The notes below the pieces were generated by a model, which was not told where the DNA came from, did not search any database, and saw nothing but the letters and a program-made list of their open reading frames with translations. Below, one piece after another: positions 12,671 to 56,892 of a DNA stretch of 64,000 nucleotides; within the stretch, counting starts at the first letter, position 1, and each line of letters begins with the position of its first letter. This DNA is from an uncultured Verrucomicrobiae bacterium (lineage in GTDB: Bacteria; Chlamydiota; Chlamydiia; Chlamydiales; Rhabdochlamydiaceae), in assembly GCA_963818965.1 (NCBI GenBank), contig CAWFUG010000009.1, forward strand, positions 64,001-128,000, written 5' to 3'. A program made the position numbers and the translations under genes.

Positions 12671-12840
12671 TATACCCCTTCCACCTCAATCGTACCCAAG
12701 AAAACCGAATGAAAAGTTCTCAAATTTCGAATCAAAGGGAGGGGGTAATATTGAATTAATATTAACCCCCTCCCTTTGATTCGAAATTTGAGGCTTTTAA
12801 TCGGTTTGCTTGTGGTTACGATTGAGGTGGAAGCACTATA
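12671..12840. mobile_element. Family A palindromic MITE-like element, copy A1 (about 170 nt)
   Basis: tataccccttccacctcaatcgta...tacgattgaggtggaag with a long central stem. It is a near-exact reverse complement of 20099-20268. Confidence 0.85.
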
Positions 12841-12869
12841 TACCCAACTTTTGAGTTCACTTAGGTATA
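12839..12869. repeat. Family C element remnant abutting A1
   Basis: tatacccaacttttgagttcacttaggtata is a collapsed version of the 41961 and 56833 elements. Confidence 0.65.
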
Positions 12870-12915
12870 GAATCTCGGCTATTTTAGTTTTGGCTTGGAT
12901 TCGATTCCTGGGGCC

Positions 12916-14532
12916 TTAGATAGCGCTGGGGATAGTATGTGCTTCGGTCTCTATTTCATTGGTTAAGCAATGGGGCCCGCAATGGCAAATATTGAGACAG
13001 TTATGGGCTTGATCGAAGTTGGTCGGATCGCTCCCTTTTCTTCCCGTATAGTAAACAACAGTATTCTCAGATTGAGAATGGATGAACTCAGCAAAGACAT
13101 CCATGAGGATTTTGCCTAAACGCCCCGGTGCGCCCGCTGTAATGTAGTAATAATGTTCCGTTTTAGGTGAAAAGCCCGTTACAGCGTTCAGGAAGTTAAT
13201 GTTGTAAGAAGCATCGCATTCATCATCAGCATATCCAAAAAAGGCTCCTGGTGTGGGGATGACAATCAATCCAGCGGCAGCTAGCTGCTTTCGGACCGAT
13301 TCCATAGTACCTTTTAAGTTCCTAGAAAGTATGCGCGTTGTTTCAATTAATGATGCTAATTCAAATTCTTGAGATGAATTTAGTCCAAGTTTCTCTCTGT
13401 TTTTATATATTTCTTTCAATACTTTGTGAGAAAGCTCGTAATCTTGCAAGAATACAGAACCTCTGGGTCCAGGGCAAATAAATAGGTCGAGGTGATACCC
13501 GGGCTGTGGAATGAAATGCACGCTCTCTGGAGAGGCATCTAATTCGATGGGGAATATTTTTTTCTTCACGAACGACAATTCCGCTTGGTAGTGAGAGGCT
13601 GCTTTTCTGTCTATTTCTTCGGCGGTTCCCATTGTTTCGGTAGGATTGGTCGGTCTGTCTTTTTTCTGCCTATCTTCTTGTCTTTTTATTATTTTAGCTA
13701 TTTTTTCAATTGTATCGTCAGGTGTGTGCGCAATGAAATCTTCCGCCATTTTGTCGATGGTTGTGGGGATTTGTCCTTCGAGAAACCACTGGTTTAACAG
13801 ATCCCTTTTTTTAGCGTGGAACTGCTTTTCAGTATCGAGGCTTCGCGTATTGTGATCGATGGGCTCGAACCATCCTTCGGCACGCAAAGAGAGATGTGTT
13901 ATGATAGCTAAATCATCTCCTATAACCCATTGAGGGATGTTGTCTGCATTAGTGATGCGAAAACAATTGCCCCCTTCCAAGTAGGCCCGAGTTTCTCTGG
14001 TGATAGCAGGATCCACGATTTTGAGTGCCAGGGGCGCACTGCCTTCCGCTCCCACATTCCCTAAAATACTTTGGAAAAACGGATTTTTTGTGGCGAGAGC
14101 CACGTGATCCCGGAAAATTTTTATATGGTCGCTTAAAAGGGAGATTGCATTCTCATGAGAGGGGACGGAGTGGGTGACTAATACGTTTGAATTATCATTG
14201 ACGAGAAGCACATCGCGCGGGTAATAGCCCTCTGGAGTAGGAGAGACTTCAAACCCTTCCCTGTCTCCAATCTCGCTCATGTTTTCGAAAAATTCACAAC
14301 AAAAAGAGTTAACGAGAATCGCTCGTCCAGGATCCGTCTCTTTAGGAGGGCGGATGAGCAGTTTGATGATTTTCTTTCCAAAATCATGAGCTGTCGTATA
14401 GCTAAATCCTGAATCTGGTGGATGCGTCATCTCGGGCTGAAAGCTCTCTGCAAAGACCTCTTTTACTTCAGGAGCGGGATCCCATTCAGACATTGGGATA
14501 TGGCTTTTATTTAAACTTATTGTAGAAGACAT
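12916..14532 (-). CDS. Pentein-superfamily (arginine/peptidylarginine deiminase-like) protein, paralog 1
   Basis: YPRD, LEGGN, YHLD, NINFLN and C-terminal GPHCLT motifs. Start taken at MSSTISL, giving 538 aa. Confidence 0.7.
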   Translation of the reverse strand: MSSTISLNKSHIPMSEWDPAPEVKEVFAESFQPEMTHPPDSGFSYTTAHDFGKKIIKLLIRPPKETDPGRAILVNSFCCEFFENMSEIGDREGFEVSPTPEGYYPRDVLLVNDNSNVLVTHSVPSHENAISLLSDHIKIFRDHVALATKNPFFQSILGNVGAEGSAPLALKIVDPAITRETRAYLEGGNCFRITNADNIPQWVIGDDLAIITHLSLRAEGWFEPIDHNTRSLDTEKQFHAKKRDLLNQWFLEGQIPTTIDKMAEDFIAHTPDDTIEKIAKIIKRQEDRQKKDRPTNPTETMGTAEEIDRKAASHYQAELSFVKKKIFPIELDASPESVHFIPQPGYHLDLFICPGPRGSVFLQDYELSHKVLKEIYKNREKLGLNSSQEFELASLIETTRILSRNLKGTMESVRKQLAAAGLIVIPTPGAFFGYADDECDASYNINFLNAVTGFSPKTEHYYYITAGAPGRLGKILMDVFAEFIHSQSENTVVYYTGRKGSDPTNFDQAHNCLNICHCGPHCLTNEIETEAHTIPSAI

Positions 14533-14671
14533 TTTATTATGTATATTGTTTATGGTTATACATAATATTATAATATTAATTATACATTTATTCAATTTCT
14601 TAATTAATATCAAATTAAAGAGCTTGTAATAAACGACTTATGACTGTTTTAGAGGGGCTCTATGTGTGATA

Positions 14672-56100: not shown

Positions 56101-56630
56101 CTGGGAAGTTGATATTCGAGAGACTGGGTGTAGAATTCTTCCAGATCGGGAATTTCAACAAGGGAGGTGAAGCATTTGAGTTCCACGAGCGTTTCGAGAG
56201 AGGCAGAGTTTATGATTTTTGGGTCGATCAAAAGCGCAAAGGCTTCGTTGCTCAGCGATTCTATGAGATGAGATTCATAAGGGTGGGACTCTGGATGAAA
56301 GAGGAATTGCCAAAGTTTTGGTGAGATGAACAGAATCGATGTAGGTTTGATTCGCAAAGAGCGGAATCGTGGATCTTTCAAGATTGTTCGGAAGTTGTTT
56401 TTAGATAAAACTTCTAAAATCCGCATTCGAAATTCCAGAGGAATTTCCCCTTTCTTGGCGTAATCTTTCAAAACCTTTTTGCTCTCTTTGTAGGCCAGGG
56501 CGCCTTCAAGGTTTGTGCGGTATGTTGAATAATACGCATCTTGATTTGAAGTGAGAATTGCCAACTTATCTTCCAAAATCTGAAAAAAAGAAGGGGCGGA
56601 TATGCTTGTTGTGGTTGTGGCTGAGCTCAT
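53172..56630 (-). CDS. Large hypothetical protein with BTB/BACK-like and LRR-like regions (candidate effector)
   Basis: SQSEYFQTLL...GMK, LEGIQFF and ENIAAL...CPELQEYV resemble BTB-BACK. C-terminal LxxLxL repeats. Start taken at MSSATTTT. Confidence 0.6.
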   Translation of the reverse strand: MSSATTTTSISAPSFFQILEDKLAILTSNQDAYYSTYRTNLEGALAYKESKKVLKDYAKKGEIPLEFRMRILEVLSKNNFRTILKDPRFRSLRIKPTSILFISPKLWQFLFHPESHPYESHLIESLSNEAFALLIDPKIINSASLETLVELKCFTSLVEIPDLEEFYTQSLEYQLPRINRRSPKLSMRTIYCLASVWPSSEEKDFLQLFATLPPTLQESSPHLVTLETVAAECALFSKIAAKGIDEEWQALSPEALYRLFHFVHGDAKSSRLRNELFDHLLTLLKIGKLDPKYCNELIKAAENSFDLQKRLKEDHLIVVLEEIGTLSICPWNMFSQSEYFQTLLKPGMKPLSQIVLTGDVAKSFYFLYDLLKAKRKGFFHNLFREQKINAQTLEQLWAILEGIQFFALSDFETERSLIAQEIIRKSGDSMENIAALADNLGAIPCPELQEYVLLWLEKSSLFLIQKKGNKYAVTIAITTLPSFATLKYATRVLKSLQNNRSLSTIHWKQINYSRPQQKTLLLLCDVYCCHELGLIAEKKLLEKKIEDLYFIAYSVNKESLNSWSPSDVFFILGTVKEEAASHFLNTLRKEEVCESFWKSVQASVLSQGAAPLKGETAYFEKIASDKSGTLTHALSAAQLPRFLYFLVQRENETPLEEPTLFLSNLALTIGRQIKEGSLDFEVLKKALQDCQTFYPEHADFVNTLEIGIEYPQAQSIPLSLQLLLRMEISPQIFKEGKMGRAFEGIPFRSAKRAVEFLENVIRENEVPLIRLQEAGRLSPSFFLALEEIQKGVFGSDLTPLRTQAARIAFLMSLLQEDTLLAAARWAASINCHPLLNECSSVYCKEGKLKKFKGFNEIELFSIQSKPLEFLKAIGQNIRYLTLFTQTDPHVAEGAWSKIVQACPRLHFLSLYISGKAPPLETFALSELPELQHLLIALKDMESWEAVRSLKIPPTLSKICILTDMTHIERTTPYEFFDRLPPTGVTLELKRSTPQQPPRRHFSQNLLEAPVEMHPTKIRFPRLRQCTELSIRLLKCDCMGELISTISEMDQLKTLNLSYYEYLPSIRLLETLLLGSRHLKNCNISIDLSCFELKKESPNFVKQFQEIRYGNPTLSLRMKGTNEKLAEERSFHIKSDKVENKDYPKVNLEIALF

Positions 56631-56664
56631 GAGAAAATCCTTAAAAGATAAAATACGGTGGGTA

Positions 56665-56834
56665 TATAGCCCTTCCACCTCAATCGTAACCACAAGCAAA
56701 CCGATTAAAAGCCTCAAAATTCGAATCAAAGGTCGGGGTCAATATTGAATTTAATATTGACCCCGACCTTTGATTCGAATTTTGAGAACTTTTCATTCGG
56801 TTTTCTTGGGTACGATTGAGGTGGAAGGGGTATA
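56665..56834. mobile_element. Family A palindromic element, copy A3
   Basis: Same arms as A2, with a perfect 34-bp central stem carrying compensatory changes. Confidence 0.9.
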
Positions 56835-56892
56835 TGCCCAAGTGGACTCAAAAGTTGGCCCTACGGCCCACTTTTGAGTCCACTTGAGTATA
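56833..56892. mobile_element. Family C palindromic element abutting A3
   Basis: tatgcccaagtggactcaaaag...cttttgagtccacttgagtata. Confidence 0.85.

Follow-up and report, generated by a model that had tools for sequence, protein, structure and literature searches.

A palindromic element of environmental chlamydiae that combines a conserved hairpin core with ends resembling those of different insertion sequences

The subject of this study is a group of short palindromic elements in a 64,000-nucleotide stretch of chlamydial DNA (the window), which corresponds to positions 64001-128000 of contig C9 in a 2.24-Mb assembly of 12 contigs and 88% completeness (genome G000). A preliminary description, made from the window alone, had counted 13 pieces in 64 kb and assigned them to four families, A to D, with largely unrelated interiors, TATAC-type ends and a single end-recognition enzyme encoded elsewhere. 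We find that A to D are subfamilies of one palindromic element of 167-170 nt, in which the inner hairpin is conserved and the ends vary. This element is probably a long-lived hairpin core that adopts the ends of insertion sequences (ISs) as these pass through, rather than a deleted copy of one of them. Bacterial miniature inverted-repeat transposable elements, or MITEs, are usually viewed as hollowed-out ISs, with conserved ends, a dispensable middle and a lifetime tied to one transposase.

The relationship between the subfamilies is apparent in an alignment of 29 full-length copies spanning the variants (28 from G000 and one from genome G002), where A, B, C and D align from end to end in 180 columns. 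Compensatory changes are found in 44 of its 62 base pairs, a number that was reached in none of 500 shuffles and in no slid control; a count of mismatch types was unable to separate DNA from RNA pairing, the choice of strand being arbitrary. The core of A aligns with the cores of B, C and D at a score that none of 300 plain and none of 300 palindromic shuffles reached, contrary to the proposed lack of relationship between the interiors, and a copy in genome G140 carries A-type ends on a B-like core. In its general layout, an inner hairpin, conserved and about 100 nt long, is flanked by variable outer ends of about 27 bp, which together measure 159-166 nt without the target duplication. In 14 pairs of copies the inner core is 92-100% identical and the outer stems 32-52%, with no pair displaying the reverse pattern, and a full-length hybrid at C8:186941 joins the left half of D to the right half of C with a crossover at the apex. 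Other observations of the preliminary description stand: all 13 pieces are present, the window copies end in TATAC-type inverted repeats and two of them fold into long hairpins with z scores of –19 and –22 (0 of 200 shuffles each).

Copies are numerous beyond the window. A scan of the genome for TATA-bounded inverted repeats returned 103 elements, compared to none in one Markov-simulated genome, and BLAST searches with 92 of them as seeds identified 243 merged loci covering 22,720 bp or 1% of the genome. Of the 69 copies of 150 nt or more recovered by a profile search, 49 measure exactly 167 or 170 nt; the 15 loci longer than 175 nt are mostly copies abutting other copies. With respect to neighbouring genes, 85 copies reside in tandem, 43 in convergent and 39 in divergent spacers. 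The subfamily labels F, J and K used below were coined in this analysis. The element has no match in Rfam 15 at gathering score, where the window returned two tRNAs only. Because the assembly contains small indel errors and duplicated contigs, the element is slightly overcounted and errors may account for some of the odd lengths. Contig C4 repeats the end of C12 in a self-inverted form of 21.6 kb, which is probably a fold-back artefact of long-read sequencing, and C5, C6 and a portion of C7 represent variants (94-97%) of other contigs. TATA-ended hairpins of 164 nt with other cores are found at C1:121725-121888 of G000 (L057), in genome G019 (L088:2860-3023) and in genome G199 (L231:1501-1664), and the same length thus recurs on unrelated interiors.

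The mode of insertion can be read from empty sites. One position of another dispersed repeat has received insertions of two different subfamilies, and 18 of the 19 empty paralogues listed contain a single TA there, which defines a net insertion of 165 or 168 nt. Contig C5, which matches part of C12 at 94% identity, is devoid of a copy present in the latter, with lengths that agree and one TA at the site, and the insertions in aroA and sulP described below are equally in register with their empty counterparts. Together with the IS630-like ends and the lack of a transposase gene, these sites bear out the proposed classification as a non-autonomous, TA-duplicating MITE: the element is short (167-170 nt), multicopy (243 loci), bounded by terminal inverted repeats and devoid of a transposase gene, and its ends resemble those of autonomous ISs in C, K, J and A (IS630) and in an IS701 class found in other genomes, though not in B, D and F with the ends sampled. 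We consider it very likely that the copies in the window are TA-duplicating MITEs moved by IS630.

Support for such a mobiliser comes from the ends of the element. Searches of the 88%-complete assembly detected neither DDE_3 nor Y1_Tnp domains and no intact IS630; a broken IS630 fragment at C9:237746-237881 adjoins a decayed A copy (E = 4.7e-4), and the transposase sought next to such ends is thus represented by a fossil. Genome G036 contains a complete IS630 of 1,113 bp with TATAC-type ends and a protein of 343 amino acids scoring above the cut-off, whose relatives are found in Legionellales, in other Gammaproteobacteria and in 26 of 150 genomes of the phylum. In a comparison with 44 candidate ends taken from 25 IS630 loci of chlamydiae, the ends of C, K, J and A match closely at 22, 24, 22 and 20 of 28 positions, scores that 12, 2, 12 and 57 of 3,887 background sites attain, and each of the four matches a different IS630. 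We rely on this unfiltered test since a first matrix of IS630 ends had employed a motif filter. The proposal of IS630 as mobiliser is thus likely to be correct, with the enzyme acting in trans on TATAC-type ends common to IS630 elements, whereas the assumption of one end-recognition enzyme is not borne out: the ends in this genome match different IS630 lineages, and in other chlamydiae there are ends of IS701 type and of at least one class besides. Genome G056 (L138) has 34 IS630 matches with ends like a variant of A (18 of 22 positions) and no copy of the hairpin element.

These other ends emerged from a metagenome scan with two core motifs, which provided at least 134 matches, of which 80 loci were fetched. 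Binned by their ends, 83 distinct matches fall into 31 of TATAC type, 15 of CTAG type (including one GG-type copy that fell into this bin) and 37 others, which include truncated or decayed TATAC copies. A new 14-nt terminus was found on 19 matches, whose flanks contain a 7-bp duplication in ten, a 6-bp duplication in two, three duplicated bases in one and none in six cases. The same terminus is present in 88 of 401 genomes of the phylum, though absent from G000, and in genome G166 it bounds three elements of 1,155-1,157 bp, two of them with duplications of 7-8 bp; the one translated, of 1,155 bp, encodes a protein of 357 amino acids that is assigned to the IS701 family with 345 bits against a curated cut-off of 250. 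The different ends on the same core thus appear with their own duplication lengths, one class carrying the ends of a complete IS701. In eight copies examined with GG- or GAG-type ends, six show an identical 3-bp TTA/TAA duplication, one TTAA and one TA only, and the 3-bp duplication of this class presumably points to the IS5 family. Among the 28 loci listed by a pattern search for one GG-type end, none had an adjoining transposase, and DDE_Tnp_4 loci were retrieved from 17 of 250 genomes. Without the duplication, copies of all end classes measure 159-163 nt, compared to 163 or 166 nt in G000. Further copies, some of them found without the core pattern, reside in genomes assigned to the phylum: CTAG-type copies in G020, G143, G120 and G053, an IS701-type copy in G487 that directly adjoins a TATAC end (88 bits) and a GG-type copy in G396. 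In a set of 20 copies the core identity averages 0.72 within and 0.66 between end classes, the nearest core belongs to another end class for ten, and in one pair of a CTAG-type and a GG-type copy the cores are 96% and the ends 45% identical. In nine of ten IS loci tested (three IS701 and six IS630), a covariance model of the element detected no full-length copy, and the tenth, a seventh IS630, contains a weak match beside a truncated transposase; we have rejected an origin as internally deleted IS630, as the interior of the element was not found in these loci. Apart from this core, at least four others of about 150-170 nt carry IS701-type ends in chlamydial genomes (L431-L438), one of which (L432 and L437) appears by eye to be combined with both IS701-type and GG-type ends.

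The model, which was built on TATAC-ended copies, matches 21 of 40 relatives and, including G000, 49 of 150 genomes of the phylum, with one further genome unscored. Since it scores unrelated TATAC hairpins at 50-60 bits, 14 of the 49 matches, with E above 1e-20, were set aside, and the element is present in 35 of 150 genomes at E ≤ 1e-20, across nine families. By these searches it is common in environmental chlamydiae. It was detected in none of 26 genomes of family f28, which are 1.0-1.3 Mb in size. Searches of non-chlamydial genomes with the model did not recover the core: none of five genomes matched in one set and one of five in another, the latter match being an element of Legionellaceae with B-like ends on a different core, and the order of G044, also outside Chlamydiota, gave one weak match in 98 genomes (28 candidates scored per genome, three genomes unscored). 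No match was obtained in the plasmids and viral contigs searched.

Some copies reside in genes. Among the 243 loci, 18 are located within long open reading frames (ORFs) with coding-like flanks on both sides, eight of them full-length, four of 47 nt and six partial; none belongs to subfamily A, and 74% of the TA sites of the genome are coding. The host genes of in-frame copies include aroA, rlmD, recC, menC, plsX, a WbuC cupin gene and sulP, of which aroA, rlmD and sulP were checked against homologues. The insert in AroA coincides exactly with a gap of 55 columns in 11 of 11 orthologues, and no aroA other than the gene carrying it was found in the assembly, at its stated completeness. In RlmD, the split falls between adjacent residues of the structure PDB 5xj1, and in SulP three orthologues without insert fall into register with a single TA. 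An AlphaFold model of AroA calculated with 12 sequences predicts an intact EPSP synthase fold (predicted local distance difference test, pLDDT, of 85 and template-modelling score of 0.83) with residues 209-260 unstructured, a region where low confidence is expected because the insert has no aligned rows; prediction from the single sequence gave a pLDDT of 42. The comparisons indicate that the element sometimes inserts into working genes without breaking them. This AroA, encoded in L011 (G000 C11:117260-118732), is 67% identical to that of G015 and only 29-38% identical to the other ten orthologues aligned, which suggests that its origin is separate. The added length is a multiple of three in 34 of the 55 copies from metagenomes and in 54 of the 81 copies with two ends in G000, where related copies are not independent; with several relatives carrying copies of 163, 165, 166 or 169 nt, these counts do not establish selection for in-frame length across the phylum.

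How might such an element persist? We infer that the DDE transposase of a visiting IS binds both ends in trans and moves the element, which, once this transposase is lost, would endure by acquiring the end of another IS on one arm, either by insertion of this IS at the end of the element or by recombination in a common core. The new end could then be copied to the other arm by fold-back repair through the palindrome. Insertions in coding regions would survive only where the net length is a multiple of three and the frame stays open, and we speculate that pairing by a transposase across a short DNA loop sets the near-constant length. Several observations weigh against this account. The metagenome copies were selected on two core motifs, whose conservation in this set is circular, 18 of the 19 matches with the 14-nt terminus come from one assembly, six of the 19 are without exact duplication and no enzyme was matched to the CTAG-type or GG-type ends. 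In the tree of cores, 2 of 17 branches are supported, too few to indicate number and direction of end swaps, and the end classes show some clustering (8 of 200 shuffles are as low). The ends of B, D and F match the sampled IS630 ends at 17-18 of 28 positions, not beyond chance, 36 of the 49 element-bearing genomes have no match to the IS630 clade, and of the 26 genomes with this clade 13 carry the element and 13 do not. Finally, the assembly contains no intact IS630 and no movement has been observed. The weak co-occurrence of IS630 and element fits transient visits and unassembled repeats, without proving them.

A wider version of end capture, which we put forward tentatively, would invoke a few ancient hairpin 'chassis' of about 160 nt in Chlamydiae that have no single IS parent and repeatedly capture the termini of active DDE transposons, namely of IS630, IS701 and probably IS5-type elements, with the conserved core, including its fixed mismatches, as the functional part in capture or pairing of the ends. 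The second core with two end classes (L432 and L437) suggests a general system of cores combined with ends. A different view, in which the host keeps the core as an RNA hairpin that serves RNase III processing, the stability of mRNA or the binding of proteins, with the ends only spreading it, would account for the strong covariation, for the fixed mismatches and bulges kept across the phylum and for the mostly intergenic location of copies (18 of 243 in ORFs), and ERIC and Correia transcripts are described to influence mRNA stability in the accessible part of one article (PMC2229807). We consider this view unlikely, as copies occupy non-orthologous sites in both orientations and all spacer types, many are deleted, about two thirds of the genomes of the phylum have no element and DNA copying from arm to arm would yield the same covariation.

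Still less probable is a scenario without capture, in which the ends have drifted from one ancestor by compensated mutation and resemble ISs by convergence or selection. The wide variation of end positions 6-15 even inside the TA class and the lack of a close IS630 match for B and D would suit it, yet near-identical cores carry unrelated ends, and the IS701-type class shares the terminal 14 nt of a complete IS701 along with a change of the duplication from 2 to 6-7 bp, all of which disfavours drift. The conservation of the inner hairpin rather than the ends, and a 1.7-kb repeat with two copies in the genome that is a putative IS110, could alternatively point to an enzyme that recognizes structure, either a HUH/RAYT tyrosine transposase or an IS110 bridge recombinase. 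Such a mover appears very improbable: the genome has no Y1_Tnp match, one copy of the 1.7-kb repeat ends within a different repeat family and the duplication length changes with the end class, a behaviour characteristic of DDE transposases. The initial model of four unrelated MITE families served by one enzyme finds an echo in the common TATAC ends and in the lack of a BLAST match of A to the other clusters; it is refuted by the end-to-end alignment, the homology of the A core and the G140 copy, and we regard it as practically untenable, the evidence favouring a single family in which the interior is conserved and the ends are of several kinds.

In the window, full-length copies of A are located at 12671-12840 (170 nt, with one end of a variant type), 20099-20268 (with identical copies elsewhere in the genome) and 56665-56834 (a second variant). 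The first shares a TA with an adjoining remnant of C at 12839-12869, as a case of insertion at the end of an earlier copy, and the last, likewise with a TA in common, is in tandem with a 60-nt derivative of C at 56833-56892. A full-length B copy with a changed last base at 20431-20598 precedes the probable start of the next gene, and a right-end half of B is found at 32080-32116. A further full-length copy of B type (36348-36514, + strand) is located in frame within sulP/dauA (35614-37472, + strand), where it adds 55 residues, a point absent from the preliminary description. The shorter copies, namely the deletion derivatives of D at 24355-24411 (57 nt) and 28330-28376 (47 nt, which has lost 120 nt and leaves a net addition of 45 nt or 15 codons) and the C derivatives of about 60 nt, including that of 64 nt at 41961-42024, derive by internal deletion from full-length parents located elsewhere in this genome. 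A remnant of C followed by the right end of D occupies 38421-38475. One-base frameshifts occur late in prfB (23349-24330) and in a G run of sulP near 36630, both likely assembly errors in homopolymer runs.

The window also contains unrelated repeats. A separate hairpin family with 154 loci in the genome is represented at 3094, 16488, 26708, 32177, 53053 and 57227; it receives two TATAC insertions and one of its copies holds one end of the 1.7-kb repeat. Another repeat surrounds the full-length A at 20099, which sits within an unrelated AT-rich hairpin repeat (about 20028-20339) with short internal repeats and several empty paralogues. Palindromic repeats at 25423-25493, 34883-34965 and 11295-11331 have 11, 2 and 26 loci, respectively, and a related piece of 80 nt is absent from contig C5 compared to C12. 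Elsewhere on the contig, at C9:13000-58000, several very long genes with collagen-like (G-x-x) repeats form a cluster.

Among known systems, the element is closest in behaviour to two. The enterobacterial ERIC, IRU, MITEEc1 and MITEPlu5 repeats, which the accessible text of one study links to 'CCC-type' IS630 elements, share the TA duplication, TATAC-type ends, a long hairpin, some in-frame fusions and the proposed IS630 mobiliser (PMC6267812), and one end of an Escherichia coli ERIC falls in the 99.5th percentile of the motif-filtered IS630 end matrix. ERIC is, however, 127 nt long instead of 167-170 nt, its core resembles the chlamydial one only in an inner stretch of 19 columns (2 of 300 shuffles) and, in the portion of the text available, it is not reported with other end classes (PMC6267812). 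The model had no match in E. coli K-12 and none on an ERIC locus, which was located by pattern after the pdhR-aceE region proved to contain no ERIC. With only ends and this stretch alike, we do not assign the element to the ERIC family. Rickettsia palindromic elements (RPE), described in the accessible parts of three articles as palindromes of about 150 nt in frame in conserved housekeeping genes of an intracellular bacterium (PMC2229807, PMC10969869, PMC1458961), resemble it by description in this latter respect, as verified for aroA, rlmD and sulP, and differ in that target duplications and candidate transposases are visible for the chlamydial element. RUP of Streptococcus pneumoniae, related to IS630-Spn1, and Correia/NEMIS of Neisseria are equally TA-ended, have IS630-like ends and nest in mobile DNA, yet, as far as the available text describes, each has one end type and is found in one genus, and RUP is closed in all six frames (PMC2229807). 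The IS982-derived MITE of Cardinium is non-autonomous with a related transposase in trans, like the element described here, although MITEs of this type are internal deletions of one parent and strain-specific, according to the part of the source at hand (PMC9769881). In contrast to such IS-deletion MITEs, the interior of the chlamydial element is absent from the partner ISs tested and outlives the ends across the phylum. REP/RAYT systems (tagged palindromes of 20-40 nt with a Y1 RAYT and no duplication) were rejected, as Y1_Tnp is lacking and both length and TA duplication differ.

In agreement with the earlier statement that such a system was not known in Chlamydiae, our literature search, which left out ISfinder, subscription journals and bioRxiv supplements, found no description of the element or of an exchange of ends between transposase families on one core; the available main text of the 2011 and 2024 reviews does not contain 'chlamyd'. 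Its mode of operation is that of ERIC and RPE; it does not fit the deleted-IS model, since its middle is retained and its ends change. Across the phylum, the family thus displays the reverse of the usual view of MITEs, with target duplications that change along with the ends, and it offers a testable answer to the question of how palindromic repeats outlast their enzymes, for which pairs of transposases and MITEs can now be named. A general system of cores and ends, if true, could account for the persistence of RPE- and ERIC-like repeats where no transposase is resident. Our findings further extend in-frame insertion in the style of RPE to Chlamydiota, including the only aroA found in the assembly, and should alert annotators that inserts of about 55 residues in these proteins are mobile DNA.

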